DNA of 64,000 nt from a virus (Duplodnaviria > Heunggongvirae > Uroviricota > Caudoviricetes), in IMG/VR virus record IMGVR_UViG_3300008267_000033, positions 1 through 64,000 of that record; one strand, given 5' to 3'. Below are positions 16,462 to 54,689 of this stretch, piece by piece. A program made the position numbers and the translations under genes. Position 1 is the first letter of the stretch. Every line of letters starts with the position of its first letter. The notes beneath the pieces are model-generated. The model saw only the letters and a program-made list of their open reading frames with translations. It made no database searches and was not told the DNA's origin.

Positions 16462-17010
16462 CTAGTCTGACGCCGAATGAATTTCTATCAAAGGAATATG
16501 GTCGGGATGCTGTATGACGTAATCAATTATTTTAGCAATACTATCTAGTGCTAACCATTTTTCATGTCCAGGTTTGCCATCATTTAGTCCGCCGGCAATT
16601 ATATGTGAAGTTTTAATTCCTTTTTTGTTGTTCAATTGCAGGCTCCGGTCTCGCAATGCTCGCTTTTGTATACTGTATCCACCATAAATGCTATCTATGC
16701 GACCATCATCAACTCCCATCCACTCAGCAGTGCTTCCGATGTTTATAATATGCCCTTTGATATTGTGCTTGGACCAAACATGCCATGTGGTTTCAAGCAA
16801 TGCTAATTGTCCACCATTGCATATAAAACTGCTGTTGATAAAAACATTGTAGTTTTTAATCTTGTTTTGAAAAAAGTCTTCACTGCCCGAATCCCAAAAT
16901 CTCAAATCGTATCCAGTTGCCCTGCTAGCAAATTCTGCCTGAGGAAATTTTCTTTTGATAGCCGAAGCCACAGTAGTATGATCGGGGTTTCCTGTGCAAA
17001 GTATATTCAT
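16462..17010 (-). CDS. hypothetical protein
   Basis: ORF track. Confidence 0.3.
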   Translation of the reverse strand: MNILCTGNPDHTTVASAIKRKFPQAEFASRATGYDLRFWDSGSEDFFQNKIKNYNVFINSSFICNGGQLALLETTWHVWSKHNIKGHIINIGSTAEWMGVDDGRIDSIYGGYSIQKRALRDRSLQLNNKKGIKTSHIIAGGLNDGKPGHEKWLALDSIAKIIDYVIQHPDHIPLIEIHSASD

Positions 17011-18149
17011 GATATAATTTTACTCCATTCGGGGGTTAACGCCTTGAAATCTGTACCTCGTATGTGATTCAATGCAGATATATTTTTCCAAAAATGATCA
17101 TGGGATTGGTCGCTTGTTTTCAAGGATTGCACCAACAGGAGTAATTGGTTGTAGTTTTGAAATTTGCGTTGTAGCGTGGCATGACCCGACTCTGACAGAT
17201 AATCAAGTTCAAAATCACCAACTGCTTTTTGAAAAATTAAATTAGTTGGGTCGCCATATCTGTTTGAAGAAAAATTTTCATTCCACCAATCCCATACTTC
17301 GTTTAAATAAAAAAAGTTAAGATAACTCCATGTACAATTTATATTGAACATATGGTTGTGTGGCATATTAGCATAGAACCAATCCAAGGTAGAGTTGACT
17401 TTGTTCCAGTCTGCTCCAGTGCGTTGGTAATCAAATCGAGCACCAACATCATCAATGCTGAAATACAGTTCAATCAACTGACATTTCTCCCATAATTGTA
17501 AAATTTCATCCGACACTGTTTGCGTAGCATTGGTATTATAAAATACTCTAACATCTGACAGTCCTTTTACTTGTTGAATTTTTTGCAAAAGTCTAACATG
17601 ATTCTCAGACAACAGTGGTTCGCCACCACCATGAAAATGCACATGCTTGATATTTTCCAAAAGAGCCTGGTCAGTTATTTCTAATTGTTCATTTTTTTTG
17701 TATTGAAACGGTGCAATATCATATGTGGGGTGTAATTTTTGATAATCAGGAATCCATTGTGAACTGTTTTGAGGTCCGCATATGACACATTTCAAATTGC
17801 ATAAATTTCCAACACTGTAGTCAATACCTGTTGGCCCAGACAACTCAATGTTGATGTCTTTATGGTATTCTTCGTATAGTTTTTTTGATCCTTGTCGTCG
17901 GCTTTCTATCCCAGCATCTTCGGCACTGTAGCAGGCCTGGCATCCTGGTATAAAGGCATCAGTTTCAACACATTTTTTTAGCTCTAAGTGTTCGGGGCTA
18001 TTCCACACATCAGTCAAATTGAACTCTGATGATGTTTTGATATATCCATTGTAAAAAGAACAAGGATTGTAACCCAGTTCACCGTTGTGAGACCATATGG
18101 CAAGATTTTTATAAATTTCGTAGCAAAAGTATTTTTTATTTTTCATCAC
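17007..18149 (-). CDS. radical SAM protein
   Basis: CNLKCVIC = CxxxCxxC radical SAM cluster motif; 380 aa. Confidence 0.55.
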   Translation of the reverse strand: MMKNKKYFCYEIYKNLAIWSHNGELGYNPCSFYNGYIKTSSEFNLTDVWNSPEHLELKKCVETDAFIPGCQACYSAEDAGIESRRQGSKKLYEEYHKDINIELSGPTGIDYSVGNLCNLKCVICGPQNSSQWIPDYQKLHPTYDIAPFQYKKNEQLEITDQALLENIKHVHFHGGGEPLLSENHVRLLQKIQQVKGLSDVRVFYNTNATQTVSDEILQLWEKCQLIELYFSIDDVGARFDYQRTGADWNKVNSTLDWFYANMPHNHMFNINCTWSYLNFFYLNEVWDWWNENFSSNRYGDPTNLIFQKAVGDFELDYLSESGHATLQRKFQNYNQLLLLVQSLKTSDQSHDHFWKNISALNHIRGTDFKALTPEWSKIIS

Positions 18150-22210: not shown

Positions 22211-22477
22211 TTACAGGGGCTGTTGTTTGTTGCGTCTGCGTGGCTGAACTTCAGTCTCACGATAGATGTAGTCTCGGCCAATTTTACCTGCTTCAATTTC
22301 CAACATAGCTGTGACGCCGGCACTGTGTGCAAATTTAAGTGTGATTTTAGGCATGTCACCGCGACTCAGTTCCCGCATGCGGCGTGCGCCAGCCAGGACC
22401 AAATCGTATCGGTTACCGATCATGGCCACTGCCTGTTCTGAGTTGAGTCCTGCTGTTCTGTCTGCTGGGTGCTTCAT
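22211..22477 (-). CDS. rpoZ: RNA polymerase omega-subunit (RpoZ)-like protein (89 aa)
   Basis: [36 protein letters not shown] aligns with E. coli RpoZ [35 protein letters not shown]; start set to ATG 22475-22477, preceded by GGAAGA. Confidence 0.5.
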   Translation of the reverse strand: [88 protein letters not shown]

Positions 22478-22764
22478 GGTTCTTCCTTGGTTGATAATCC
22501 GTTTGAATGCTTGGCTGTTTGTTGTTCCAAGTCTTGGAACAGGCGCTTTTCTTGTTGGGTCAGTCTGTCCTTGTGTGTCTTGCGTGGATTGCCACACATG
22601 AAACATCGTGGTTGACCACAGTCCATGGCATGACGCTTGGCAAACTTATGCGGCTGACCAATGTTTGAACCAGCGGCTCGGGCAATTTTAACTTGTCTAG
22701 ACACAGCCACATCAGTTTTGTGTCGGCGTCGGCTGTTGACAAATCGGGCTAGGTCGTTGCTCAT
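22474..22764 (-). CDS. small basic protein with CxxxxCxxC motif
   Basis: ORF track; CGQPRCFMCGNPRKTH; ATGA overlap with neighbouring genes. Confidence 0.3.
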   Translation of the reverse strand: MSNDLARFVNSRRRHKTDVAVSRQVKIARAAGSNIGQPHKFAKRHAMDCGQPRCFMCGNPRKTHKDRLTQQEKRLFQDLEQQTAKHSNGLSTKEEP

Positions 22765-27713: not shown

Positions 27714-28196
27714 TTAGGCCGCCTGCAGACCTTTGAATCTGTCGGCAGCATAACTTGCGGCAAATGCATGTGGTTTCACAAAAGGAATCACGTTGCATGT
27801 GCCTTTGATGTAGCCTATGGCTTGGCTTAGGACACAACTTGAACCGTGCATTTCGTCAGGGTTGATGTCCAAGTGAACTTCGACATCACGTCCTTCCAAC
27901 ACTTCCGCCAGTTTCAAGTACAACTCTGATACTTTATAAACTTCAGTCATGAGTCGCATGGCAGGTTTGGACACCTTTTGATCCCACACACGTTCACGAT
28001 GCACTTCACCAAAGATCTTGCAACCGTTGTTGCCGTTGATGTGAACCACAACAGCCAACACATAGTCAGCATGCCATGCACCGTCGATGCGCAGGCGTTC
28101 TGAATCACAGCCAAGATAGATCTTGGTTTCCGGAGACTGAGCCCGGATAAATTCTGCCACTTGTTCTAGATCAAGTTTTTTCATATGCACTTTCAA
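27714..28196 (-). CDS. DUF458/YkuK-like RNase H-fold protein (tentative), embedded in the tRNA array
   Basis: Family recalled from memory only (YLGCDS..LAVVVHI..LDINPD..KPHAFAASYAADR); weak. Confidence 0.3.
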   Translation of the reverse strand: MKVHMKKLDLEQVAEFIRAQSPETKIYLGCDSERLRIDGAWHADYVLAVVVHINGNNGCKIFGEVHRERVWDQKVSKPAMRLMTEVYKVSELYLKLAEVLEGRDVEVHLDINPDEMHGSSCVLSQAIGYIKGTCNVIPFVKPHAFAASYAADRFKGLQAA

Positions 28197-28822: not shown

Positions 28823-29012
28823 TTAGGAAATTTGTTGCAATGCGTCTCGACGCATCAGCAGTTGGCGTGTTTCGTTGACTCTATGCACAGAGATGTACTC
28901 GATGCCTTCGAATATTCTTACATGTCTGATATCATCGCAAATGAGTATTTCTCTTGTGATCTTGTTTTCAAATGTAATTTTGTTCATAATCATCTCCTGT
29001 TACAGTACTTAT

Positions 29013-29104
29013 TTGGCGGAAGACGGAGGAGTCGAACCCCATCCCTGTTAAGAGAACCTGGTTTTCAAGGCCAGTCGCAGGACCAACCCCGCTGCATCAT
29101 CTTC
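29013..29104 (-). tRNA. tRNA-Ser (anticodon TGA), type II
   Basis: 92 nt with long variable arm; anticodon stem CTGGC with loop CTTGAAA; T-arm GGGGTTCGACTCC; GCCA end. Confidence 0.65.
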
Positions 29105-29113
29105 CTGTATTTT

Positions 29114-29191
29114 TTGGAGCAACGGGTGAGATTTGAACTCACGGTTTTTGGGATTTGCAATCCCATGCGTTGGGCCACTCCGCCACCGTTG
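29114..29191 (-). tRNA. tRNA-Cys (anticodon GCA)
   Basis: Acceptor GCAACGG/CCGTTGC; anticodon stem TGGGA/TCCCA with loop TTGCAAA; GTTCAAATC; TCCA end. Confidence 0.65.
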
Positions 29192-29841: not shown

Positions 29842-29917
29842 TGGTGGTAATAGTTGGACTCGAACCAACGGTGGGTTGCGTATGAAGCAACTGCATTAGC
29901 CACTATGCTATATTACC
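29842..29917 (-). tRNA. tRNA-Met (anticodon CAT), elongator or Ile2 type
   Basis: Acceptor GGTAATA/TATTACC; anticodon stem GTTGC/GCAAC with loop TTCATAC; GGTTCGAGTCC; CCA. Confidence 0.65.
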
Positions 29918-29992
29918 ATATAGAAACACACTTGATATAGGAGATCACTCTCTCACGGATGAACCCGAGGTTGGTCAAATATGTTTTTATAT
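29918..29992. repeat. inter-tRNA spacer bounded by the leader/trailer inverted repeats ATATAGAAACACAC (29918-31) and ATATGTTTTTATAT (29979-92)
   Basis: The motifs abut the 5' end of tRNA-Met and the 3' CCA of tRNA-Lys and are mutually complementary. Confidence 0.55.
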
Positions 29993-30066
29993 GGTAGGAG
30001 CACAGGGAATCGAACCCTGATTAACTGGTTAAAAGCCAGCTACTTTGGCCGTTAAGTTATGCTCCC
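29992..30066 (-). tRNA. tRNA-Lys (anticodon TTT)
   Basis: Anticodon stem GCTGG/CCAGT with loop CTTTTAA; T-arm CAGGGTTCGATTCCCTG; CCA. Confidence 0.65.
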
Positions 30067-30071
30067 GTACA

Positions 30072-30147
30072 TGGTCCCTGCGGTCAGATTCGAACTGACG
30101 ACCAGCGGATTAAGAGTCCGTTGCGCTACCAACTGCGCCACACAGGG
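30072..30147 (-). tRNA. tRNA-Lys (anticodon CTT, tentative)
   Basis: D-arm GCGCAGTTGGTAGCGC; anticodon loop CTCTTAA; T-arm GTCAGTTCGAATCTGAC; CCA. Confidence 0.5.
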
Positions 30148-30251
30148 TCAGTCGTAATTTTTTGATTTTACGTGCCAACCCTAGACCAATACGGGATCTA
30201 GAGCGACACTACGGTTTACCTCGTTTCATGCCATCTCCTTGTTAAAAACGT

Positions 30252-30280
30252 ATTATACAATAAACGGAATCTATCGTCAA
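30252..30280 (-). promoter_or_regulatory. sigma70 consensus promoter (TTGACG-17-TATAAT) reading into the tRNA block 30147 to 29558
   Basis: -35 revcomp of cgtcaa at 30275-80, -10 revcomp of attata at 30252-57; about 100-nt leader before the tRNA at 30147. Confidence 0.6.
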
Positions 30281-30864
30281 CCTTTTGTTCGGCGTTGAAA
30301 GCCGAACCATGCCTTGATGGATTTGCTGATGGGCAAATCTTTATCAAACCCAATTGTCAAACTTATTCTGTGACCAGACAATTCAGGATTAGGATGTACG
30401 CTATGTACGCACGATGCATCAAATAACACTGGTGACACCAATTCAAATTCGGTAATTAGTTCACGTTCTTGATCCATTGGAAATCCTGTATATAATATAC
30501 CATTTGTATCACTAGTAAGTTTTCCAGCACCGTCAGGAACTTGCCAAAGTTTTGTCATTGAGCCTTGACAATTTCTAACTGGCCATAAGATTCTTACATA
30601 CGGGTCTACACCGTCGTTGTCTTTGTGCATGCTTACAATATCATTATCAGCGCAAACTATGGTGGCCAATCTTTCTGGAATCAAATGCCGACTGTTTAAA
30701 AATTCTGCTAGCAACGGACAATGACTCAGCATATGATGTATTGATTGATCATTGAAATAATTTTTACTCAACATTGCATCAGTGTGGTCAACAATATACT
30801 TGTAGACTTCTTCACTTATGTCCTGATGATTTTCTACATCTAAGAATTTGTATGCTAACTTCAT
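30277..30864 (-). CDS. cupin / 2OG-Fe(II)-oxygenase-like protein, paralog 1
   Basis: HKDNDG (HxD) and VHSVHP His motifs; shares PxxNCxxxxTxxW with 35702..36316; start moved to ATG 30862-30864 so the gene does not overlap the tRNA at 30878. Confidence 0.35.
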   Translation of the reverse strand: MKLAYKFLDVENHQDISEEVYKYIVDHTDAMLSKNYFNDQSIHHMLSHCPLLAEFLNSRHLIPERLATIVCADNDIVSMHKDNDGVDPYVRILWPVRNCQGSMTKLWQVPDGAGKLTSDTNGILYTGFPMDQERELITEFELVSPVLFDASCVHSVHPNPELSGHRISLTIGFDKDLPISKSIKAWFGFQRRTKG

Positions 30865-30877
30865 GCTATTACTTATT

Positions 30878-30951
30878 TGGTGCCCCACGACAGAATCGAA
30901 CTGCCATCACAGGATTACAAAACCAGTGTAATGCCATTATACTAGTAGGGC
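30878..30951 (-). tRNA. tRNA, anticodon uncertain (possibly TGT, Thr)
   Basis: Acceptor GCCCTAC/GTGGGGC with one G-U; T-arm GGCAGTTCGATTCTGTC; CCA; anticodon stem pairs poorly (loop TTTGTAA). Confidence 0.4.
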
Positions 30952-30958
30952 GGCGGTA

Positions 30959-31141
30959 TTAAGACTTTGCTATGATCTTTTGAATTGTTTTCTTATAGTC
31001 CAAGGCACGTTGAATCTTTGCACGATTTTTTGGTCTAGCAGTTTCCAACAGGGCTGTTAGCTGTGCCACATTCAGTGGACCAAGCCTGGGCCGGCCACTG
31101 TGATGTTTCATTGGATCGTTGTGTGTGTTATATGCTGACAT
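30959..31141 (-). CDS. hypothetical small basic protein
   Basis: ORF track. Confidence 0.25.
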   Translation of the reverse strand: MSAYNTHNDPMKHHSGRPRLGPLNVAQLTALLETARPKNRAKIQRALDYKKTIQKIIAKS

Positions 31142-31157
31142 AGTTTTCCTTTTTGTT

Positions 31158-31232
31158 TGGCTCCTCAGACTGGGATCGAACCAATGACCGAACGGTTAAC
31201 AGCCGTTTGCTCTACCTCTGAGCTACTGAGGA
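31158..31232 (-). tRNA. tRNA-Asn (anticodon GTT)
   Basis: TCCTCAGTAGCTCAGAGGTAGAGC closely parallels E. coli tRNA-Asn; anticodon stem AACGG/CCGTT with loop CTGTTAA; GGTTCGATCC; CCA. Confidence 0.7.
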
Positions 31233-31240
31233 ATATACTT

Positions 31241-31330
31241 TGGCGGAACGTTAGGGAGTCGAACCCTATGAGCAAGTTTCCTCACCCTACGCATTAGCAG
31301 TGCGTTGCCTTACCGTCCGGCCCACGTTCC
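31241..31330 (-). tRNA. tRNA-Ser (anticodon GCT), type II
   Basis: 90 nt; acceptor GGAACGT/ACGTTCC; D-arm GGGCCGGACGGTAAGGC; anticodon loop CTGCTAA; long variable arm; GGGTTCGACTCCC; CCA. Confidence 0.65.
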
Positions 31331-31352
31331 TTGCGAATACTTATACTGACAT

Positions 31353-31427
31353 TGGTGGAGGGTAAGGGAATCGAACCCTTAACTCATGCTTGCAAAGCAC
31401 ATGTGTTCCCGTTAGCACCAACCCCCC
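31353..31427 (-). tRNA. tRNA-Ala (anticodon TGC)
   Basis: Acceptor GGGGGGT/ACCCTCC with G3-U70 wobble (Ala identity element); anticodon loop TTTGCAA; AAGGGTTCGATTCCCTT; CCA. Confidence 0.65.
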
Positions 31428-31434
31428 AAATACA

Positions 31435-31508
31435 TGGCATCCCGGGAGGGACTCGAACCCCCACAAACGGTTTTGGAGACCGCTATGCTGCCATTACACC
31501 ACCGAGAC
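31435..31508 (-). tRNA. tRNA-Trp (anticodon CCA)
   Basis: Anticodon stem GCGGT/ACCGT with loop CTCCAAA; GGGGGTTCGAGTCCCTC; CCA. Confidence 0.65.
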
Positions 31509-31535
31509 AAATTAAACACACTGTTGCCAATGTGT

Positions 31536-31614
31536 GTATTAAAACAGATTGTATGCTTAGGGAATAATATTTCTGTCAAGCGACCAGCAACGGATACGCA
31601 ATCTGTTTTAATAC
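31536..31614. repeat. perfect 16-bp inverted repeat GTATTAAAACAGATTG / CAATCTGTTTTAATAC enclosing a 47-nt loop, upstream of tRNA-Trp
   Basis: Arms at 31536-51 and 31599-614. Confidence 0.5.
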
Positions 31615-31712
31615 GCTCGGATTTTTTTATGTACAAGAACACAAGCCATCCCCGAGGCCGCCCGTTTATTTTTTTGAGTGCTTGTAGGACCGCGTTTCCG
31701 TTTGCACTAAAT

Positions 31713-31745
31713 AAAAAAACCCCGGAGTGTTTAGTTCCGGGGTTC
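31713..31745. terminator. strong bidirectional rho-independent terminator
   Basis: AAAAAAACCCCGGA gtgtttagt TCCGGGGTTCTTGTT; on the minus strand the stem is followed by T7. Confidence 0.65.
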
Positions 31746-31977
31746 TTGTTAGATATACGAATATAGTCTATCAGAACCCCGGGTCTCCTGGAATACTGTT
31801 GAATGTGCCATTGGCCAACAGCCAGGTTGTTGCCTGGAAGGACATGGGTTTTGTCATTGAACAGAATTGTTGTTTCATCATAGTTCCTATTATAGTTTAT
31901 TTATTATTTGTTGTCAACCACAGAGCAAAATTATTTGCAGTGCTCTGCATTACAAAACTCATTCTATTGCTAGTATA

Positions 31978-32376
31978 TCAAACTTGCTGTATGAATGCAC
32001 TCCAAAGAACAGTGCCATCTTCACTGACAATTGGAACAGCCCAGACGTTCTCAAAATCACATGTGTTGATACTGGCTTGGGTATCAAAGTGAATAAGACT
32101 CCAAAACTTTCGCATGGAAAAATCAGCCTCTAAATTTTGAAATTTGTCAACAAAGGCCTGTGCAGCTTCTTCGCTGATGGAATAATAAATTGATACGTCA
32201 GGCCATGTGTCTGCGTTCACCACGCACAAATTCAATATCAAATTTTCATTTATGCACTCATTCCAGAAATTGACAATAGGATCGAAATGATCAACTACAT
32301 GTTCGCTTCCTTTTGAGCTTATGTTAAGGTCAGACGCCTCTTCCCTAGCAGTCATTATTATTGTAATTTCATACAT
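31978..32376 (-). CDS. hypothetical acidic protein
   Basis: Start set to ATG 32374-32376 (MYEITII...), preceded by AAGGAAA; the upstream part of the track ORF would overlap tRNA-fMet. Confidence 0.35.
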   Translation of the reverse strand: MYEITIIMTAREEASDLNISSKGSEHVVDHFDPIVNFWNECINENLILNLCVVNADTWPDVSIYYSISEEAAQAFVDKFQNLEADFSMRKFWSLIHFDTQASINTCDFENVWAVPIVSEDGTVLWSAFIQQV

Positions 32377-32390
32377 ATATTTCCTTTTAT

Positions 32391-32465
32391 TTGGTTGCAG
32401 AGGACGGATTCGCACCGCCGGTCCCCGGGTTATGAGCCCGATGAGATACTACTTCTCCACTCTGC
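32391..32465 (-). tRNA. initiator tRNA-fMet (anticodon CAT)
   Basis: CGCAGAGTGGAG...TCGGGCTCATAACCCGG...AACCA: C1xA72 mismatch, three G-C pairs closing the anticodon stem, close parallel to E. coli tRNAfMet; T-loop TGCGAAT. Confidence 0.7.
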
Positions 32466-32670
32466 GCTATGTTTATTTATATTGAATGAAGCACTGCCCG
32501 GTGTTTAAAGGTACGTATAGCAATATGCCGATACCATCCTTCCAGGAACATGACTTCGACTGTGACTAGCAGTCCACGCGGCTCTCGCCCGGTCAGCGGC
32601 TCTGGATCAATAAGTCCCTGGCAGTTGGGCCCATTGTCAATGAGTTTTTAACACGCTTCAATCAATATCG
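32466..32670 (-). ncRNA. 205-nt GC-rich non-coding segment between tRNA-His and tRNA-fMet; candidate small structured RNA
   Basis: CCAGG..CCTGG enclosing a GCGGCTCT direct repeat; no ORF. Confidence 0.25.
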
Positions 32671-32747
32671 TGGGGTGCATGATGGGATTCGAACCCACGC
32701 ATATCGGAATCACAATCCGAGGTCTTGACCGCTTGACGACACGCACC
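32671..32747 (-). tRNA. tRNA-His (anticodon GTG)
   Basis: Extra 5' G-1 opposite discriminator C73; anticodon stem TCGGA/TCCGA with loop TTGTGAT; GTGGGTTCGAATCCCAT; CCA. Confidence 0.7.
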
Positions 32748-32826
32748 ATATAGAAACACACTAGTCGGAAACGACTTAGAGACCTACTTGCCCACAGTCA
32801 CGAAGGCTTCTAATGTGTTTTTACAT
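32748..32826. repeat. inter-tRNA spacer bounded by ATATAGAAACACAC (32748-61) and AATGTGTTTTTACAT (32812-26); the spacer contains an AGTCG gaaa CGACT hairpin
   Basis: Abuts the tRNA-His 5' end and the tRNA-Arg(ACG) 3' end. Confidence 0.55.
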
Positions 32827-32902
32827 GGCGCGACCGGAGAGATTCGAACTCCCGACCCCTTGGTTCGTAGCCAAGTACTCTATCCAACTGAGCTACGGTC
32901 GC
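32826..32902 (-). tRNA. tRNA-Arg (anticodon ACG)
   Basis: GCGACCGTAGCTCAGTTGGATAGAGT; anticodon stem CTTGG/CCAAG with loop CTACGAA; GGGAGTTCGAATCTCTC; perfect 7-bp acceptor; CCA. Confidence 0.75.
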
Positions 32903-33518
32903 CGGTTGAATTTGAGAGCCTACGCCGCTTTTATCGTAGATTTATTCAGGACTTACCGGCCGCCTAGCCTGACCTCGAGCACGATGGATATCACTTGGGC
33001 TCCATCCAGCGTGGTCCCCGAGTGGACTACCGCAGTTGCCCGCGGCTGGGTCTCGAACCCACTTGCCTTCTGCTGTTTTGGTCCTTCGAAGAAACCTAGA
33101 CAGCGTGACTTCACTTGCTGACACTCTCAAAACTGGATTTGTTTAGTAGGCTACCCCTCATGTTCTCTTACTCTTGGGTAGCGTGACCATGTCGTATATC
33201 ACCGAAGAACAATCCGCAATATACTAGGCTCCCTCGCTAAAGGCATTACTAAACAAAAACTTGGCGGTCCTAGGGGGTAACGATCCCCACTCTTACGGCG
33301 TGACAAGCCGTCGTGCGTCCATGAACACTTTAGGACCAAAAATCTTGTTGTTACATTAAAAATGCGGCTTGCGCCTCCCACTGCTAACTACTGCTTCCCA
33401 ATTTATCGTCCATCGGCACCCGTGGTAGGGCTTGCGATGCGCATCGGCCTGACGTTCTGGCGTCAGTGATCCTTGGGATAGGACTGCTGGGCCTTGACCT
33501 GCCCAGCATCAGGTTGTT
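32903..33518 (-). ncRNA. about 0.6 kb GC-rich non-coding island inside the tRNA array; candidate structured RNA(s), class unknown
   Basis: No credible ORF; many GC hairpins (TGCTGGGC..GCCCAGCA, CTGACG..CGTCAG, GATGCGCATC) and a T-arm-like GTGGGTTCGAGACCCAG at 33043-62; same strand as the tRNAs. Confidence 0.3.
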
Positions 33519-33604
33519 TGGTGGAGACGGATGGATTCGAACCACCGCGCTTTTTACGGGCCAGATTTACAGTCTGGTGCAATCAACCACTCTGCCACGT
33601 CTCC
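33519..33604 (-). tRNA. tRNA-Tyr (anticodon GTA), type II
   Basis: 86 nt; acceptor GGAGACG/CGTCTCC; anticodon stem CCAGA/TCTGG with loop CTGTAAA; long variable arm; GGTTCGAATCC; CCA. Confidence 0.7.
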
Positions 33605-33614
33605 AAAACGTACT

Positions 33615-33716
33615 ATATAGAAACACACTATACAACAGGTTTAGGTCTGCTTCTGTATCCTGTCACGGCGTAGTATGAAGTTATCTCTAGACCTCAGCCG
33701 TAATGTGTTTTTATAT
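33615..33716. repeat. inter-tRNA spacer bounded by ATATAGAAACACAC (33615-28) and AATGTGTTTTTATAT (33702-16); the spacer contains a GGTCT..AGACC hairpin
   Basis: Abuts the tRNA-Tyr 5' end and the tRNA-Glu 3' end. Confidence 0.55.
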
Positions 33717-33790
33717 GGTACACGATACGAGAATCGAACTCGTCTTTCCGCCTTGAAAGGGCAGCGTCCTAACCGATAGACGAATCGTGC
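33716..33790 (-). tRNA. tRNA-Glu (anticodon TTC)
   Basis: D-arm GTCTATCGGTTAGGAC; anticodon stem CTGCC/GGCGG with loop CTTTCAA; T-arm ACGAGTTCGATTCTCGT; CCA. Confidence 0.6.
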
Positions 33791-33868
33791 ATGCTATACG
33801 AAAACACACTTCGGATACTGTACTAAACAGAAACTATCCAACACGGGCTATCCCGCTGAAGCATGTTT
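33791..33868. repeat. spacer bounded by GCTATACGAAAACACAC (33791-809) and the degenerate GCATGTTTACATATAG (33852-67)
   Basis: Follows the tRNA-Glu 5' end; the partner side is followed by a CCCTGT aactag ACAGGG hairpin instead of a tRNA. Confidence 0.4.
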
Positions 33869-33991
33869 ACATATAGTACCCTGTAACTAGACAGGGACTA
33901 CATGACAATCAAAATTTTAACGAACTTTTCAACTAGTCTCGATCGACTGTGCTGTTTTAAACTGTTTGGTCAACACCATAGAAAAACACAC

Positions 33992-34060
33992 TCTCAGGAA
34001 TCGAACCTGCTACCCTGTAGTACGGGGCTGTATCCAACGGACCATCGCGCATGGTCTGAG
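33992..34060 (-). pseudogene. tRNA-like remnant (T-arm only), flanked by the array's leader/trailer motifs in swapped order
   Basis: GCAGGTTCGATTCCTGA T-arm-like hairpin plus a GACCAT..ATGGTC hairpin; no intact D or anticodon arm; the 14-nt motifs at 33976-33991 and 34061-34074 can pair like an acceptor stem. Confidence 0.25.
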
Positions 34061-34168
34061 TGTGTTTATCTATGTTGTCGCGGAGGCCGAGTCTACAAAC
34101 TCGCTTCGAGTCCCTTGGTTCCAACCCTTTTTGCATCTCTGCGTGGGTTCTTACATTCGAGGACCGCC

Positions 34169-34196
34169 TTGCTTTCTAACTAGTCTCTAGTATAAC
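34169..34196 (+). promoter_or_regulatory. sigma70-like promoter, copy 1 of a 32-bp direct repeat (TTGCTT-16-TATAAC)
   Basis: TTGCTTTCTAACTAGTCTCTAGTATAACATCT at 34169-34200. Confidence 0.4.
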
Positions 34197-34267
34197 ATCT
34201 TGTGTTATTCTGGTCAACTTGTTTTGCAAAATCCCTTTGCTTTGTAGGGTCTTTGCAAACTTTGCTG

Positions 34268-34295
34268 TTGCTTTCTGACTAGTCTCTAATATAAC
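34268..34295 (+). promoter_or_regulatory. sigma70-like promoter, copy 2 of the direct repeat (TTGCTT-16-TATAAC)
   Basis: TTGCTTTCTGACTAGTCTCTAATATAACATCT at 34268-34299, 99 bp after copy 1. Confidence 0.4.
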
Positions 34296-34325
34296 ATCTC
34301 TGCCATTATTGGTCTAGCCGAAAAA

Positions 34326-34353
34326 GAAAAACCCGCCTAGATAGCGGGTTTTT
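34326..34353. terminator. bidirectional rho-independent terminator
   Basis: AAAAACCCGC ctagata GCGGGTTTTTG; ends the minus-strand small gene and the putative plus-strand sRNA. Confidence 0.6.
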
Positions 34354-34780: not shown

Positions 34781-35365
34781 TCAAATCACTTGGGCAATAC
34801 GAGCCAAGATGATTTCAACCACTTGATTGCTGATCACAACTTCATAGTGGTTCAGCGGAAGTTCTACCAATTCAAAATCTGTGCGATATTGTTGGCTTTC
34901 TATTGTGACCACACCGTCATTGGGTTCTTGTATCCAGGGACTGGCTCCGCGTGTGGTCACAACCTGTGTCCAACATGGTGGTGCAGGCAACTTTTTGGCC
35001 GCAGCCATGGGATGACTTGCAGGACCAATGTCTTTCATCAGCCGGTTAAACGGCAGGAAGTAACGTGCATAATCTGCTTGTTTGCTGCCACCATAAGGTG
35101 TGCTCAAGCTCACACCGCCCACAGTGGTCGCACTGTAGTGGTTGGCCAGGTGCAGGGCATAGATACCGCCCAGGCTGTGACTGACGAAGAACAGTCGATC
35201 CTGATCATCCAGTTGGCCCTTCATTTCTGCCAGGTTGTGATCAAATCCTGCTTCGCTGTTGTATTCCAGGGCTAGGTCGGGCTCTTCTGTGTGATCCCGC
35301 ACAAACTGTCTGATGTGTGTGAAACTTTCTGCTGTGGCTGATGCCCCGTGTATGTAAACTATCAT
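34781..35365 (-). CDS. alpha/beta hydrolase (lipase/esterase-like)
   Basis: GxSxG nucleophile elbow VSHSLGG; 194 aa. Confidence 0.5.
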   Translation of the reverse strand: MIVYIHGASATAESFTHIRQFVRDHTEEPDLALEYNSEAGFDHNLAEMKGQLDDQDRLFFVSHSLGGIYALHLANHYSATTVGGVSLSTPYGGSKQADYARYFLPFNRLMKDIGPASHPMAAAKKLPAPPCWTQVVTTRGASPWIQEPNDGVVTIESQQYRTDFELVELPLNHYEVVISNQVVEIILARIAQVI

Positions 35366-35377
35366 TTGAATATTTAT

Positions 35378-35405
35378 TGTAGAGAAACCCGCCGAAGCGG
35401 GTTCT
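35378..35405. other. GC hairpin with GNRA-like loop (CCCGC cgaa GCGGG), possible terminator or attenuator upstream of the hydrolase gene
   Basis: AGAGAAACCCGCCGAAGCGGGTTCTGAGTTTCTGTT. Confidence 0.3.
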
Positions 35406-35701
35406 GAGTTTCTGTTACGAGGTATGTCTTACCCTAGGCAGTGTTTAGGCTGCCAAAGCGAACTGTTCGTCGTTTGCATTTACGGTTTTTGCTTGATTAA
35501 CGGTCATCGCCTACCGTGCTGTCCACTCTGTTACTTGTTGCCCTGTCGAAACTATGCACCCCCATCAAAAGAATTATTGACTAACATTCCCCCCATACTT
35601 CATTTCTGGTGCGGCTAATGCAAAAACTCTTTTGGTGGAGGTGGGGGGATTTGCACCCCCGTCCAGAACACTTTTCTCTCGGCTTCATACAACAATAACT
35701 A

Positions 35702-36316
35702 CTATTTAATCAAATGTGGCCATAAGTTGCCATATTCATCCAATGGTTCAGGTTTAAACCTGATGCTTGCGGCTACTCTCAATTGGGTGTGATGAGTTTC
35801 TGGGCGATGTAAAATATTGACATTGATCCAATGAGGAATATTAGAATCACATCGTCCAATTTCTACTGCTGTACGAGGATCCACAACTCTAGCTATTTCA
35901 ACAATAGAAGTACCAATAACATAGTCTGGTAAACTTTGATCTTTGATCTTGCCATCATACCACACAGTGTAGGTGTCTTCACAGTTGATCAGTGGAATGT
36001 TCAGTGCAATATCCACACCTACATCCACATGCGGAGGAAATTCACGAGTGCTTTCAACAGAGATAAACGTTATTACAAAAAAATTGTTGTATATACCCAG
36101 TCGTTGGAACTCTTGCATCAGAGTAGTACAAGTGTTGTGCATGAGTACTTTGTAGCTGATTTCCACAGCGGTGCTGGTATATGGAACCAGTGTGTCTTTC
36201 TTGGTTTGAATAAACAACTTCAATAATTCTTTTTGTATTGCAGGTAATAATTCTGGATTTAGGCTGGGCTCATGATACAGCCAATCAGGAGTGGTATTTC
36301 GATATTTGTAAACCAT
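35702..36316 (-). CDS. cupin / 2OG-oxygenase-like protein, paralog 2
   Basis: PPHVDVG (HxD) plus ETHH His motif; start set to ATG 36314-36316 (MVYKYRN), 7 nt after the stop of the upstream gene; the long N-terminal extension in the ORF track overlaps that gene. Confidence 0.35.
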   Translation of the reverse strand: MVYKYRNTTPDWLYHEPSLNPELLPAIQKELLKLFIQTKKDTLVPYTSTAVEISYKVLMHNTCTTLMQEFQRLGIYNNFFVITFISVESTREFPPHVDVGVDIALNIPLINCEDTYTVWYDGKIKDQSLPDYVIGTSIVEIARVVDPRTAVEIGRCDSNIPHWINVNILHRPETHHTQLRVAASIRFKPEPLDEYGNLWPHLIK

Positions 36317-37103: not shown

Positions 37104-39158
37104 TTATTTATTGTCAAGCGACACTGTTGGTCTGGTCCAGACATCTGTGTGAACCCACTTGAAATCAAAATCTAATGATTGGCCTTGACCATGATGGTTG
37201 GCAGCTGGATTGTGATCATAAGTTTCGGCTTGTAAACTGATATCAAAATCTGCGTTCCATACCCCATCTGCATTAATTTCAAAATTGTAAACAGCACGGA
37301 ATTCAAATTTTGTTCCTGATGAACAATTATCAGGATATTTTGGATATCGTCTTGTGCCAAATTCTTTGAGATCTCGATCTGGATCAAACTCCACTCTAAA
37401 CCGGTAGGCACCCATGGCCAACCAGAACACCCGCAACAAAGGCCAAATTTCGTTGATCAAACTATTGGCCATGGGATTGATGTTCACTTTGATGATCTCG
37501 TAGTCAAAGTCTTTTTCCCAAGGAATTGAATCTGCCCAATTTGCAGGGTCTGACTCAATCTGATATTGATTTTTTAAGTCAGGTTCTTGACAGTGCGGTT
37601 GATAACGCCTTTTGGTGCCGTGCAATCTAAATTGTTCCAGCAGTATATTGGTAAGTTTGAATCTGACAAATCTGTGAAACACAGTGTTGCGCAGATCCTG
37701 TGTGGCCCATCCGTGAGTCCAGTCAATTCGTCTCACACCAAATCGTTCGCGTTCTAGATCCAAGGGTGTGTTGTGTCCCAGTCCGCAGGTGCCGGCACTT
37801 TGTGCGCCCATGCCTGAGTTACGCAGCCGCCACATCAAGGTTTGTGTTTGTGCCACGTCAGTCAATTCTTCGCCTGGAAATCCTGTGAACCAAGTAGCAA
37901 ACTGATTGCAAAAATCAATCTCAGCCATGTCGTTAAAATTTTGTTCGATCCATTCCACTCGACAATTTTTTTTCATCAAGTCCAGCACATTCTGTGATCC
38001 AGATTCCACACCAAAAGCAAACCCTGTGGCTCCTGATCGTTTTAACAGTGCCCAAAAGTCTCGGTCCATTTTACCATCAATTCGACTGTAGCCACTCCAA
38101 CTGATACATATTTGTCTTTCCATCAGTCCTTCAGCAAACCCTCTCAACTCACGAAGATTTCCATTCAGCAAACTGTCTATGAATGTGACACTTTGTATGT
38201 GTTGATTGCGATAGGCAATTTCAATTTCCTTCAACACACGAGATCCTTGACGGGCACGATATTTCCAAAACACTGTTTCATTGCAATACACACAGTTGGC
38301 AATGCACCCTCGGCTGAATTCGCTGGTTATGCCGTAAGATTCATATAACGAGATATCAAAATCACTGTAGTCAGCTGGGGGCATGCTGTCTAGATCTATA
38401 CGTGCATCTTTGCTTTGAGTTAAAAATTTTGGCAATTCTTCAGTGGGATTTTCTATGTTTTCCAGCACCTGCAACCACAACATTTCACCTTCGCCAGACA
38501 CATAATGATCAATTGCAGGGTTGTCGGCTCGGCTACCGCCAGGGCTAACGCCGCTGTTGTTGTTCATTTGTGTGATATTGGGACCGCCAATGATGATTTT
38601 TAAATCAGGTGATCGGCGTTTGAATTGTTCAATCATCCACATGACACATGCATCGTTGGTGTACCAACAACTGAATCCCAATACTGTGGGCTGCCAAGAC
38701 AAGATTTCATCTAAGTATGGCGTCAACATTGGCTCAAGCATGGGGTGCAATATCTTGCTGTAATGAGGATCTTGCCATTTCCAATCTTCATAACTGCTCC
38801 AATACGGCAGCAACTCCGGGCCTGCTTGTTTTTTACACACAGCATTGATATCCCATGTTTTGGTAGCAAACCCTGCATGCTTGCTCAGTGCTGCCATTCT
38901 AGCAATGCCATATGGTGGCGAAACAGTACTCCATTCGGGCATGACAATCAGTGCCACACGATTTGATCTAATTGTTTCGTAATGTATTACAACTTCAGTG
39001 AGATTTTTTTGTTTGCGACTTTCAGTTGGACTTTTTTGTGCGGCCACAAACATTTCAGAAAGTTTCACATGTGTGTCATTGCCGACCGCGACTGGAGACA
39101 CAGTTGGATACTGTGTTGTTTGAATGGGTATTATTTTTTTTGAATCGATAACTGACAT
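37104..39158 (-). CDS. B12-binding-domain radical SAM (class B) protein
   Basis: N-terminal Rossmann-like B12-binding region followed by FSRGCIANCVYC (CxxxCxxC); 684 aa. Confidence 0.6.
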   Translation of the reverse strand: MSVIDSKKIIPIQTTQYPTVSPVAVGNDTHVKLSEMFVAAQKSPTESRKQKNLTEVVIHYETIRSNRVALIVMPEWSTVSPPYGIARMAALSKHAGFATKTWDINAVCKKQAGPELLPYWSSYEDWKWQDPHYSKILHPMLEPMLTPYLDEILSWQPTVLGFSCWYTNDACVMWMIEQFKRRSPDLKIIIGGPNITQMNNNSGVSPGGSRADNPAIDHYVSGEGEMLWLQVLENIENPTEELPKFLTQSKDARIDLDSMPPADYSDFDISLYESYGITSEFSRGCIANCVYCNETVFWKYRARQGSRVLKEIEIAYRNQHIQSVTFIDSLLNGNLRELRGFAEGLMERQICISWSGYSRIDGKMDRDFWALLKRSGATGFAFGVESGSQNVLDLMKKNCRVEWIEQNFNDMAEIDFCNQFATWFTGFPGEELTDVAQTQTLMWRLRNSGMGAQSAGTCGLGHNTPLDLERERFGVRRIDWTHGWATQDLRNTVFHRFVRFKLTNILLEQFRLHGTKRRYQPHCQEPDLKNQYQIESDPANWADSIPWEKDFDYEIIKVNINPMANSLINEIWPLLRVFWLAMGAYRFRVEFDPDRDLKEFGTRRYPKYPDNCSSGTKFEFRAVYNFEINADGVWNADFDISLQAETYDHNPAANHHGQGQSLDFDFKWVHTDVWTRPTVSLDNK

Positions 39159-50600: not shown

Positions 50601-51307
50601 AATCTTGTTACCTTTGCCATGCCCGACTTGCGGGGATCTTTATTTAGATTGATACTTTCTTCATGCATTTTAACACGGGTTTCTGTTTTTGTCACCCAAC
50701 CTGGTAATACTGCATCCAAATAGGCCAAATGCTCCTCAGGACTAGGATGCGGATCGCCATTTCGATTGGGCCATCCAGTTTTGGCAAACACAGTTTTGTC
50801 ATAGCCCGGCAAGATAGTGTCCAATACATCACTGTACAATCTCATGACATCTCTGTGCAAACTAATATCATCATTGGGCCAAGGACGAGCCATGAGTTCT
50901 ACCATGCTTATGAATCGCCAGGTCAACCCTGTACGAGTTTCTAACAACGTTTTGACTGCCTTGATATATGCAAGGTCTCGTATCAAATACCCTCGCTCGT
51001 CTATGTGTGTTTTGAGATATTCTTTGTTGAATACGTTGGTTGCAAAATGCGCATTGCCTGGAGTGTGCCACCGTCCGTCAACATACCGATCTTCGCGATC
51101 TAAACTTGTCCAACAAACTATCACAGTATCGGCAACACCGAACTGATGACGTTGATCCGCTTCCATTACTGAGTTAAAAATGTAATGATTGCCGCCACCG
51201 GCCTGTCCCCAATTTTCAAAGTGATCAAATTCTGGTGCCAAGCAATCGGCCCAGGTGCTCCAACGATAGTTGGTAAAACTACACCCAAATGTAAACAGCC
51301 TTGACAT
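50597..51307 (-). CDS. SGNH/GDSL-like hydrolase paralog (GCSF variant)
   Basis: LFTFGCSFT, NWGQAGGGN (block II-like), HPSPEEH (block V-like). Confidence 0.35.
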   Translation of the reverse strand: MSRLFTFGCSFTNYRWSTWADCLAPEFDHFENWGQAGGGNHYIFNSVMEADQRHQFGVADTVIVCWTSLDREDRYVDGRWHTPGNAHFATNVFNKEYLKTHIDERGYLIRDLAYIKAVKTLLETRTGLTWRFISMVELMARPWPNDDISLHRDVMRLYSDVLDTILPGYDKTVFAKTGWPNRNGDPHPSPEEHLAYLDAVLPGWVTKTETRVKMHEESINLNKDPRKSGMAKVTRL

Positions 51308-53325: not shown

Positions 53326-54159
53326 TCATTTGGCAAAGTGCCGGTGTGGATTGTCAAATTGCACCATTTGCTTGTTGACATCATTCTGGGCTAATTTTTC
53401 CCAAGGATCTTGTGTGCCTTTGAATATGTTTGTAAAGAATTCAGTACTAATTCCTTGGTTGTGCATGTGCGTGGCCAACTTGACACAGTCCTGATGTCGT
53501 AGTTCAATCTGAGTCTTGCTGTGGAAATCTGCTTCGTCAAATGGACGTCCTTCTAGTGATGCACGTTCTTTGAATGTGGCATCGTTGTTGTTGCCCGTGA
53601 TGTCAGCACGGTCATGCAACACCCAAACAGGTATGCGTTCCCAAATGTCCAACATGTAGGCCTGTTGACTGAGCCAGCCATCTTGCACACTGTGCGGACT
53701 GATATAGCCCAACAACTCATACCACTTGCGTGGCAGTATGGGAAAGATGCTGTAGGGATGATCCAAGTGAGTGTGGAATGCCAGCAGTTTGAATTCCCCT
53801 TCACGGTTCATAATCTCTGTGTCCCAACTTTTGGTCTCCATCACAGCATCATCGTTCCAGATCATCAGCCAACTAGCATCTGTATGTTCGGCCAGTTTGT
53901 TGTTGTACACATTGAGTCTATGGTAGCCCTGGCGTTCAAACTGCATGGCAGTATAACTGAGTTCTTGCTGGTCCAGCCATGGCTGTAGTTCAGTACGGAA
54001 GTATTCAGTGCCTGCTGCATCGTCATTGTCAAACGCAAACATCAATTGTAGTCGGTCAGGACGATCAGCAAGACTGATCAGGCTGCGAACACTGCGACCT
54101 AAACTTTCAGTGCGGCCTCGTGTGGCCAACAGCATTGCAATATCGTACTCAGGTGTCAT
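53326..54159 (-). CDS. hypothetical protein
   Basis: ORF track; no motif recognised. Confidence 0.3.
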   Translation of the reverse strand: MTPEYDIAMLLATRGRTESLGRSVRSLISLADRPDRLQLMFAFDNDDAAGTEYFRTELQPWLDQQELSYTAMQFERQGYHRLNVYNNKLAEHTDASWLMIWNDDAVMETKSWDTEIMNREGEFKLLAFHTHLDHPYSIFPILPRKWYELLGYISPHSVQDGWLSQQAYMLDIWERIPVWVLHDRADITGNNNDATFKERASLEGRPFDEADFHSKTQIELRHQDCVKLATHMHNQGISTEFFTNIFKGTQDPWEKLAQNDVNKQMVQFDNPHRHFAK

Positions 54160-54689
54160 GCAAACAAATCCTCATTCCATTCTCTATGGCCTTCTCTAAA
54201 AGCCATATTTGATTGTGTTTCTCTCACTTCTACTCGGTAGCACCACAAGCGTTGTGCCTCACCAGGCCCCCACATGTCGGGAATGTACACACCGTTCACG
54301 TACCGGTACAACTGATCAGCAAGACCTTCGCAGCCTAGTTTGGGTAATATAGTTAGCTTGGCAATGTTTCTGCGTTGCATTTCCCGGTAGAACTCCAATT
54401 CAGGATCGTCTTCTGCCACCAACAAGGTGTGATCAAATTGACTTTCCAACACTGCCTTGAGCTCTTTGAGTCCACCATAGTCAGCGGCCCAGTTGCGTGT
54501 GTCCAACTGATCTGTTCCAAAGTAGAACTTCATGGAGAAACTGTAACCATGTATCAAATTGCAATGGCTGTCTGCCCGCCACTGACGATATGCACATGGA
54601 AATGCATCGTGGTATTCTTTGGTACTGGTATATTTGTATTGTCTTGCGGACATCCAACGGTGTCCCACTTCATTTTGATCTTGTGTCAT
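54156..54689 (-). CDS. queD: 6-carboxytetrahydropterin synthase QueD / PTPS-like
   Basis: SHCNLIHGYSF = Cx3HGH(Y) PTPS/QueD motif; own promoter (TTTACA-17-TATAAT) and GGAGAA SD. Confidence 0.55.
   Translation of the reverse strand: MTQDQNEVGHRWMSARQYKYTSTKEYHDAFPCAYRQWRADSHCNLIHGYSFSMKFYFGTDQLDTRNWAADYGGLKELKAVLESQFDHTLLVAEDDPELEFYREMQRRNIAKLTILPKLGCEGLADQLYRYVNGVYIPDMWGPGEAQRLWCYRVEVRETQSNMAFREGHREWNEDLFA

Follow-up and report, generated by a model that had tools for sequence, protein, structure and literature searches.

We identified a hairpin-forming RNA motif in the tRNA array of a tailed phage (Caudoviricetes) represented by the IMG/VR record IMGVR_UViG_3300008267_000033, of which positions 1 to 64,000 (here called the window) were analyzed. 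The motif lies in spacers of the array and, on the tRNA strand, forms a helix in which the 3' CCA end of the upstream tRNA is itself one of the paired segments. It is a real and widespread structured RNA motif of phage tRNA operons and is apparently undescribed; no description of such a tRNA-flanking hairpin was found in a search of full-text literature. It differs from known processing stems in that it locks the CCA end of one specific tRNA, tRNA-Lys(UUU). We tentatively read it as a cis-acting hairpin that gates the maturation of this tRNA within a polycistronic precursor through an RNase III-type cut, an interpretation to which we give slightly less than even confidence.

The hairpin and its pairing with the CCA end

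Between 26.7 and 37.1 kb, the minus strand of the window has genes for 30 tRNAs, all with an encoded CCA, and for a permuted beta-type transfer-messenger RNA (tmRNA). Within this array, we found six clear copies of the hairpin (E1 to E5 and E7) and one degenerate copy (E6), which are listed in Table 1. An earlier note, drawn from the letters of the window, had described 14-nt inverted repeats, reverse complements of each other, around at least four spacers between tRNAs. The repeats proved real and far beyond chance, with a different extent. The exact 14-mer ATATAGAAACACAC occurs three times (29918, 32748, and 33615), always within the tRNA array, and each copy has a near-complementary rather than perfectly complementary partner 47 to 75 nt downstream. 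A repeat search gave arms of 21 to 23 nt in four elements (E1, 22 nt and 86% complementary; E2, 23 nt and 83%; E3, 21 nt and 86%; E5, 21 nt and 90%) because the complementarity continues into the flanking tRNA ends: the first arm base of E1 is A76 of tRNA-Lys, and the outer helix of E2 reaches 6 to 7 bp into both tRNA ends. Three of the spacers are truly inter-tRNA (E1, Lys-UUU/Met; E2, Arg-ACG/His; E3, Glu/Tyr), whereas E4 has no tRNA upstream. The fifth pair (33978-34073, in E5), which had been placed in swapped order, has its arms in the same order as the other elements, with an interior that happens to resemble a tRNA. The variant-arm copy E7 and the minimal hairpin E6 had been overlooked.

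Folding on the tRNA strand returned the predicted terminal stem in all five of the elements E1 to E5, in the form of 5 to 6 bp, a 1x1 mismatch, and 10 to 12 bp closing a multiloop (z scores of -2.8 to -5.8). When the whole Lys-E1-Met precursor was folded, this helix outcompeted even the AU-rich acceptor stem of tRNA-Met. As to the background frequency of the motif, no comparable arm match was found outside the array within the 64-kb window. E4 has a U·U mismatch at position 6 and several G·U pairs that are possible on the tRNA strand only. The interior of E5 adopts a cloverleaf-like fold with a T-arm (a pseudo-tRNA; folding free energy of -42.8, z score of -5.75) and gave no Rfam tRNA match at an E value of ≤10. 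The arms of E7 are 16 nt long, 100% complementary, and 47 nt apart, and their type (GTATTAAAGCATATT/AGTATGCTTTAATAC) recurs at other loci. The 5' arm of E3 (33698-33716) and the 3' arm of E4 (33796-33814) are also mutually complementary and could form an alternative leader-trailer helix around tRNA-Glu; such a pairing is possible at any tRNA flanked by two elements.

We detected 338 elements in all; 192 of them directly adjoin the 3' end of a tRNA, and 89 adjoin the 5' end of one. Their 5' strand consists of N72, N73, C74, C75, and A76 of the upstream tRNA, followed by UAUA, the mismatch position, and AAACACAUU; their 3' strand consists of AGUGUGUUU, the mismatch position, UAUAU, and GGU(A), and often joins the next tRNA directly, with U at position -1 of that tRNA. 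The helix totals 19 to 21 bp, about two turns, and this length is tightly distributed (most of 168 tRNA-abutting elements); the 12- to 14-bp duplex proposed earlier was therefore a part of a longer one that takes in N72 to A76 of the upstream tRNA and the GGU(A) past the 3' arm. An AU-rich and weak outer segment (mode, 9 bp) and a stronger inner segment (10 to 12 bp) are separated by a 1x1 mismatch, most often A·C, in about half of the arm types and about three-quarters of the tRNA-abutting copies. The inner half encloses interiors that vary in length between 4 and about 110 nt and can have nearly any sequence. In 185 of the 192 elements abutting a tRNA, the arm begins with A76. Pairing is frequent at the outer positions (C75-G, 94%; C74-G, 94%; N73-U, 83%; N72, 78%, where U-A, C-G, and U·G variants occur) and falls to 20% one position beyond N72, and the base opposite N73 is mostly complementary to it (A-U in 111 copies, G·U in 8, and C-G in 6). 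The GGU(A) is kept even where the next tRNA is several nucleotides off or absent. Since the tRNA's own N72 to A76 form the start of the 5' strand, the CCA end of the upstream tRNA is locked in the helix.

That the arms pair as RNA on the tRNA strand is supported by covariation, by an asymmetry of G·U pairs, and by fixed orientation, in agreement with the earlier proposal that this pairing extrudes the spacer and places consecutive tRNAs with the 3' end of one beside the 5' end of the next. Elements always lie on the same strand as the adjoining tRNAs, with the shared A76 noted above, and the A·C mismatch has the same polarity throughout. Compensatory changes are seen in variant arms (UAUGAAAGCAUUCU/AGAGUGCUUCCAUAU, AUAGAU.../...UUCUAU, and GUAUUAAAGCAUAUU/AGUAUGCUUUAAUAC). 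In an alignment of 133 distinct arm pairs chosen for at least 13 of 15 pairs, 86% of the cells were paired (73% in shuffles and 31 to 54% in slid registers), 17 of the 19 stem pairs showed double (compensatory) changes, and the covariation score was 0.43 versus 0.17, a value attained by none of 500 shuffles. Position 16, which lies outside this selection, was paired in 89% of cases versus 44% expected. Outside position 6, where A·C occurs in 124 of 234 arm types, G·U outnumbered A·C by 302 to 68, with wobbles at positions 9, 12, 14, and 16. The tRNA strand is thus the functional one, because every G·U wobble would become a mismatch on the opposite strand.

Distribution and association with tRNA-Lys(UUU)

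A search pattern built from both arms (21 fixed and 2 two-fold degenerate bases) matched more than 117 IMG/VR contigs from uncultured phages, many of them over 200 kb, and all 117 fetched loci were tRNA arrays (median, 16 tRNAs); the motif thus recurs in other large-phage tRNA clusters. Across 596 Gb of bacterial and archaeal genomes, the pattern occurred in nine places. Seven of these were chance-like, with neither extended arms nor tRNAs, and the two true copies were on tiny tRNA-array contigs binned into freshwater metagenome-assembled genomes; a host repeat can therefore be ruled out. The junction of tRNA-Lys with the arm and the Lys module were absent from 50,697 deposited phage genomes. 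The elements of the window had no match in Rfam 15 at the gathering score or at an E value of ≤10, and the Rfam matches listed for 20 other loci included no non-tRNA match on an element. Hand inspection together with Rfam (gathering score, or E values of ≤10 or 0.5) found no hammerhead, HDV/theta (HDV, hepatitis delta virus), hatchet, or twister ribozyme and no YrlA RNA on the elements.

The arms are almost invariant, and the interiors of 141 elements form 77 clusters that are unrelated to each other, with no shared fold found among them. Minimal copies of 34 to 40 nt, with loops of 4 to 10 nt, also exist. The interior thus appears dispensable. Some interiors carry a T-arm. In one conserved interior family, the fold is a tRNA-like cloverleaf whose anticodon arm is reduced to a stub, and 13 of 35 pairs show compensatory changes. 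Interior hairpins also covary between clusters 8 and 17, and the same interior family can recur in different tRNA contexts. A guide or antisense role of the interiors was considered and rejected, as no complementary targets were found in the window.

To characterize tRNA specificity independently of the arms, we used 80 loci fetched through an RNase H-like protein encoded within the array and a pairing test that ignores sequence, in which N73-CCA plus 14 nt must form at least 15 of 18 pairs with a segment no more than 140 nt downstream. The test was positive for 47 of 51 tRNA-Lys(UUU) genes (92%) and for 27 of 1,359 other tRNAs (2%), about 15 of which are expected by chance according to our estimate. 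In loci retrieved through the arms, an element lay 3' of Lys(UUU) in 83% of cases, of Gln(UUG) in 22%, of Glu(UUC) in 11%, of Leu(UAG) in 9%, and of Lys(CUU) in 0 of 44. An arm-independent scan of phage tRNA-Lys(UUU) genes found an abutting element in 31 of 64. The body of tRNA-Lys is variable (66 distinct sequences among 99 genes), and the arm sequence is far more conserved; this difference suggests sequence-specific recognition, which may be exerted by a host or phage factor. The presence of the element at 92% of tRNA-Lys(UUU) genes, its pairing with the CCA, and the invariance of its arms next to a diverging tRNA body and spacer point to a special control of the maturation or availability of this tRNA.

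Proposed role in the maturation of tRNA-Lys(UUU) and competing explanations

In the reading that we tentatively favor, tRNA-Lys(UUU) would be unusable and closed to trimming by 3' exonucleases as long as the helix has not been cut by an endonuclease, an expectation that follows from the pairing of its CCA end. The likeliest enzyme would be the double-strand-specific RNase III of the host, cutting at or near the central mismatch, after which the AU-rich outer half would melt. The tail of a few nucleotides left on the CCA end would pass to exonuclease trimming and the short leader left on the next tRNA to RNase P; the inner half and the interior would be set free and would be a by-product or, in certain families, a cargo RNA that resembles a tRNA. 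We infer the cut, the identity of the enzyme, and the gating of the tRNA-Lys(UUU) supply. The element has the form of an RNase III signal, namely, a helix of about two turns on the tRNA strand that flanks stable RNAs in a polycistronic precursor, and two-turn helices with an internal mismatch resemble RNase III signals of the T7 R1.1 type and of rRNA stems. As in the leader-trailer helices of 16S and 23S rRNA and in T7 R1.1, a long-range helix in a stable-RNA precursor is frequently broken by an internal loop or mismatch, and the RNA enclosed by its strands would be excised. Unlike those stems, the element is attached to one particular tRNA including its CCA end, its arms hardly vary in sequence among many phages, it encloses a short stretch of mostly arbitrary sequence, and its cleavage is putative.

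Several points weigh against this reading. The RNase III substrate rules that we applied are those of Escherichia coli and T7 and may not be those of the hosts in question. About half of the arm types lack the central mismatch, and 146 of the 338 detected elements have no abutting predicted tRNA 3' end. The covariation statistics are partly circular, because the alignment was selected for paired arms; the outer-pair and position-16 statistics are free of this circularity. A generic RNase III stem needs no near-invariant arm sequence, and a generic stem that separates tRNAs leaves the restriction to tRNA-Lys(UUU) (92% versus 2%) unexplained. Pfam-type scans of the open reading frames (ORFs) of the window found no RNase III gene, and no phage RNase III was found in 3.2 Mb around related arrays, which is a weak negative. 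The enzyme would therefore be the host's or be encoded elsewhere. The earlier suggestion of an RNase III-type or phage-encoded processing stem thus holds for its geometry (19 to 21 bp with a frequent near-central mismatch) and fails to account for the exclusivity for tRNA-Lys(UUU) and the conservation of the arms, and its phage-encoded variant finds no gene in the window or the related loci. The restriction to tRNA-Lys(UUU), the near-invariant arms beside a variable tRNA body, and the lack of a phage RNase III near the arrays together argue for more than generic separation of tRNAs.

A possible, if rather doubtful, alternative dispenses with RNase III and regards the helix as a mask of the CCA that keeps tRNA-Lys(UUU) inactive, stable, or protected, as a kind of "pro-tRNA" cap. 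Such a mask could block 3' exonucleases, shield the CCA, or maintain a precursor reserve that cannot be used by defense nucleases directed at the anticodon or the CCA, and release could come from another nuclease, such as RNase E at the breathing AU-rich 5' arm, RNase Z/BN, RNase P, or the phage RNase H-like protein. The near-exclusive association with tRNA-Lys(UUU) speaks for a mask, as do the pairing of precisely N72 to A76, the arms that are far more conserved than the tRNA-Lys body, and the presence of the element 3' of Gln(UUG) and Glu(UUC) in some arrays. These three are the tRNAs with U-rich anticodons that known anticodon nucleases strike. The gene of the RNase H-like protein (PF04308) within the array, which 544 related contigs also encode, would supply a nuclease candidate; however, it lies near only 16 of 117 element loci, and no named nuclease is tied to the element. 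A simple mask also has no need of the tight two-turn length or of the mismatch near the middle, where present. In the antiterminator bulge of T-boxes and the L15 loop of RNase P RNA, UGGN or GGU likewise pairs with NCCA, as the 3' GGU(A) does here with (U)ACC; unlike in those systems, the pairing of the element takes place in cis within a precursor and is part of a 20-bp helix rather than a contact with a sensor or an enzyme.

It is quite unlikely that the elements are small-RNA genes punctuated by tRNAs, with the stem as a scaffold for protein binding or processing (compare Y RNA or the stem of a primary microRNA) and the interior as the cargo. This idea, in which the cargo would be freed by tRNA-processing enzymes, is partly supported: some interiors are conserved and structured with covarying arms (the cloverleaf family), others contain the hairpins that covary between clusters 8 and 17, and one interior family may occur in different tRNA contexts. 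However, most interiors are unrelated and have no common fold, the minimal copies enclose loops of a few nucleotides, and neither targets of the interiors nor, among the ORFs, a Ro/TROVE gene were found in the window; there was also no match to YrlA or another Rfam family. The pairing of the conserved GGU(A) with the tRNA's own ACC further suggests that the element acts within the precursor and not as a released RNA. YrlA resembles E5 and interior cluster 4 in having a long terminal stem and a tRNA-like head, with the difference that the tRNA-like interiors have their acceptor stem, and not their anticodon stem, prolonged by the long stem. Hairpins located directly 3' of a tRNA, or tRNA-like folds that set RNA ends, are known from the virus-encoded array of tRNA-pre-miRNA (TMER) units of MHV68, from MALAT1-mascRNA, and from synthetic tRNA-guide RNA arrays; unlike the element, these are eukaryotic or synthetic, depend on tRNase Z, yield the hairpin as the wanted product, and do not pair it with the tRNA acceptor end. 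HDV-like theta ribozymes are also structured RNAs directly 3' of phage tRNAs, proposed to form the tRNA 3' end, whereas the element lacks their nested pseudoknot architecture, has mostly arbitrary interiors, and has no HDV, hammerhead, or hatchet match in Rfam.

An element that acts at the level of DNA is very unlikely; its arms would be the terminal inverted repeats of a mobile element similar to MITEs or REPINs, or recombination sites that shuffle tRNA cassettes as the PeSL (promoter-early stem-loop) cassettes of T4-type phages do. The inverted repeats do surround variable DNA, tRNA order is strongly shuffled between related arrays, some elements stand in tandem, and the same interior can occur in differing contexts. 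Nevertheless, copies of one genome have only the arms in common and not the interior, their orientation relative to the tRNAs is fixed, the G·U asymmetry has no meaning in duplex DNA, the element is missing from host genomes (two true copies in 596 Gb), and no transposase or RAYT was found by Pfam among the ORFs of the window, which is 64 kb of a larger genome. A target-site duplication of TATA was considered and rejected, because the outer bases of variant arms covary as complements (AUAGA/UCUAU, AUAUG/CGUAU, and ACC/GGU), that is, as inverted and not direct repeats. PeSL cassettes of T4-type phages, MITEs, REPINs, and Correia elements are likewise short conserved stem-loop repeats, in a hyperplastic phage region in the first case, and Correia elements are transcribed and cut by RNase III; the element differs from all of these in its exact position at a tRNA 3' end and fixed orientation and in the lack of a promoter, a target-site duplication, and a shared interior. 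Hardly credible at all is a transcription signal, with TATAAAAA as a -10 or late-type promoter box or with the hairpin as a terminator. A TATAAA lies in the 5' arm, 17 nt after the TTCGAT of the T-loop, and E6 was flagged as terminator-like, but no arm coincides with a predicted sigma-70-type site, and good promoters are present elsewhere in the array. The stems are AU-rich with large loops (interiors of 40 to 110 nt) and without a U-tract, and such a signal would leave the complementary 3' arm, the covariation, and the pairing with the CCA unexplained. Irrespective of these explanations, the element is a concrete, testable RNA motif and a handle for finding the nuclease or binding protein involved, and its fixed arms provide a simple metagenomic marker for this abundant group of uncultured large phages.

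Leader of tRNA-Lys(CUU), other RNAs, and genes of the array

A conserved leader precedes tRNA-Lys(CUU), the first of a tRNA-Lys(CUU)/Lys(UUU) pair (Table 1). In the window, it contains a strong Shine-Dalgarno sequence (AAGGAG) and a mini-ORF, ATG AAA CGA GGT AAA CCG TAG (MKRGKP), and mini-ORFs of the MKRxGKR type (MKRSGKR, MKRGKR, MKRAKR, MKRGKL, etc.) occur before 54 of 64 tRNA-Lys(CUU) genes in the fetched loci, as detected with a pattern requiring a TAG stop followed by TG(T/C). Their lysine codons are AAA in 89 cases and AAG in 2. A conserved hairpin (GUGUC...GGCAC) comes next, with a 5' strand that overlaps the stop codon and an inner stem that varies by compensatory changes. The mini-ORF region itself shows hairpin-like covariation, so that its coding capacity is putative. 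The leader looks like a leader-peptide sensor of Lys-tRNA(UUU) that controls phage Lys tRNA genes. A link of the mini-ORF to tRNA-Lys(UUU) itself was rejected, since the leader accompanies tRNA-Lys(CUU). The tRNA arrays of phages are now viewed as a counter to host defenses that cleave tRNAs, among which tRNA-Lys(UUU) is a well-known target. An unlikely but broader scenario is a dedicated, regulated "lysine-tRNA module" directed against host nucleases that destroy tRNA-Lys(UUU) (such as PrrC, PARIS, or Cas13), in which the element would hold an inert pro-tRNA that a dedicated nuclease releases on demand. In arrays that bear tRNA-Lys(CUU), the AAA-rich mini-ORF could sense the loss of Lys-tRNA(UUU) by ribosome stalling, and the hypervariable interiors, together with the tRNA-like cargos, might act as decoys or be by-products.

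Table 1. Positions of the hairpin copies and of other features in the window or, where given, in fetched loci (L numbers)
Feature	Position	Strand	Description
E1	29914..29996	minus	Between tRNA-Lys(UUU) (29992-30066) and tRNA-Met(CAU) (29842-29917); core (A76 to U-1), 29918-29992; 5' strand UACC-AUAUAAAAACAUAUUUGA (29996 down to 29975), 3' strand UCAAGUGUGUUUCUAUAU-GGUA (29935 down to 29914); interior family also in L085, L092, L113
E2	32742..32832	minus	Between tRNA-Arg(ACG) (32826-32902) and tRNA-His (32671-32746; G-1 at 32747); core, 32748-32826; interior conserved in L012, L040, L084, L117
E3	33610..33721	minus	From A76 of tRNA-Glu(UUC) (33716-33790) to 10 nt before tRNA-Tyr (33519-33604); core, 33615-33716
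E4	33796..33874	minus	Variant arms AUAUGUAAACAUGCUUC...GAAGUGUGUUUUCGUAU; 5 nt separate its end from the downstream tRNA-Glu, and its 5' side has no tRNA; interior (cluster 0) common to L017, L024, L036 in other tRNA contexts
E5	33973..34078	minus	Variant arms AUAGAUAAACACACUC...GAGUGUGUUUUUCUAU; first element after the operon promoters; pair at 33978-34073; related interior in L020
E6	31516-31535	minus	Minimal degenerate relative; 8-bp ACACAUUG/CAGUGUGU hairpin, 4-nt loop; tRNA-Trp (31435-31508) follows after 7 nt
E7	31536-31614	minus	Variant, mismatch-free arms GUAUUAAAACAGAUUG...CAAUCUGUUUUAAUAC; 27 nt upstream of tRNA-Trp
Conserved leader, ~110 nt	30148-30262	minus	Upstream of tRNA-Lys(CUU) (30072-30147), after the sigma-70-like promoter at 30280-30252
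Noncoding RNA, ~225 nt	32903-33140	minus	Between tRNA-Arg(ACG) and tRNA-Asp; in 45 fetched loci at 74-91% identity
Second spacer family	L002 390-461; L016 8916-8988; L015 13329-13403; L117 1216-1287		Also in ~20 other loci
Third spacer family	L025 2303-2431; L031 7739-7865; L041 10479-10608		
GOLLD RNA	L013 2321-2676		148.5 bits, runs off the locus end; beside the tRNA array of a hairpin-carrying contig
Permuted (two-piece) tmRNA	35354-35746	minus	Betaproteobacterial type; tag ANDEQFALAA; between tRNA blocks
RNase H-like protein	27714-28196	minus	PF04308, PHROG 11311 (function unknown); inside the tRNA array
Small ORF	22211-22606	minus	RNA polymerase Rpb6/omega domain; kept in 23 array loci
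Predicted sigma-70-type promoters	34217-34189; 31917-31889; 30280-30252; 29670-29642		In the array, separate from element arms
QueD-like PTPS, GTP cyclohydrolase I, several radical SAM/B12-binding enzymes	54156-54689; 57962-58705; 17007-18149; 37104-39158; 51307-53313		
Conserved noncoding stretch	28823-29114 (roughly 29010-29112)		Upstream of tRNA-Cys; found in 39 loci
Operon-start noncoding stretches	33876-33977; 34074-34330		Kept in 4-9 loci

Several other structured RNAs accompany the arrays. The ~225-nt noncoding RNA is closed by a stem (UUUGAGAGU/GCUCUCAAA) and contains several hairpins, including a T-arm-like one, with compensatory changes in 14 of 60 predicted pairs; its only Rfam match was a weak YrlA-like one (33014-33062, E = 5). 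A second family of inter-tRNA spacers (72 to 78 nt; GUUUUAGGAUAGCAACAGCAAA...(AU-rich)...GCUAUCCUGUUUUAU) has a covarying stem of 8 to 9 bp and conserved flanks and does not pair with the CCA. For this family, which starts with GUUUUAGGAU, a viral single guide RNA was considered and rejected: the preprint describing such RNAs is silent on tRNAs, and the pairing is unlike a repeat:anti-repeat duplex. A third stem-closed family of about 128 nt follows tRNA-Glu(UUC) (UUUGUUUUGUUGAU...GUCAACAAAACAAAUGG) and has a terminal stem of about 17 bp. In seven loci (L149, L170, L176, L181, L202, L207, and L212), a tRNA-His located after tRNA-Lys is bracketed by a complementary leader and trailer, e.g., AGAAUUCUUUGG...CCAAAGAAUU; this tRNA apparently lacks an encoded CCA, and the leader-trailer pairing is of a different kind. 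GOLLD RNA is known from lake phages, and its occurrence on one hairpin-carrying contig assigns the phage group to those phages.

The window phage had no close relative among the 50,697 deposited phage records, in which matches were limited to tRNA bodies. The genes around its array encode radical SAM enzymes, ThyX, FolE/QueD, sugar-modifying enzymes, and a MoxR/VWA pair, auxiliary metabolic genes that are typical for a large phage. The set of QueD-like, GTP cyclohydrolase I, and radical SAM enzymes suggests 7-deazaguanine or other nucleotide-modification pathways. The RNase H-like protein is a candidate RNA-processing factor; some of the 544 IMG/VR contigs that encode its relatives reach 365 kb, and the best 80 of these relatives share 76 to 93% identity with it, with at least 5 tRNAs in 71 of their 80 loci. 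At the start of the operon, a promoter-like unit is present as two direct repeats, TTGACC-17-TATACT (34217-34189) and TAGACC-17-TATATT (34316-34288), and the strong terminator of the upstream unit lies at 34353-34327.

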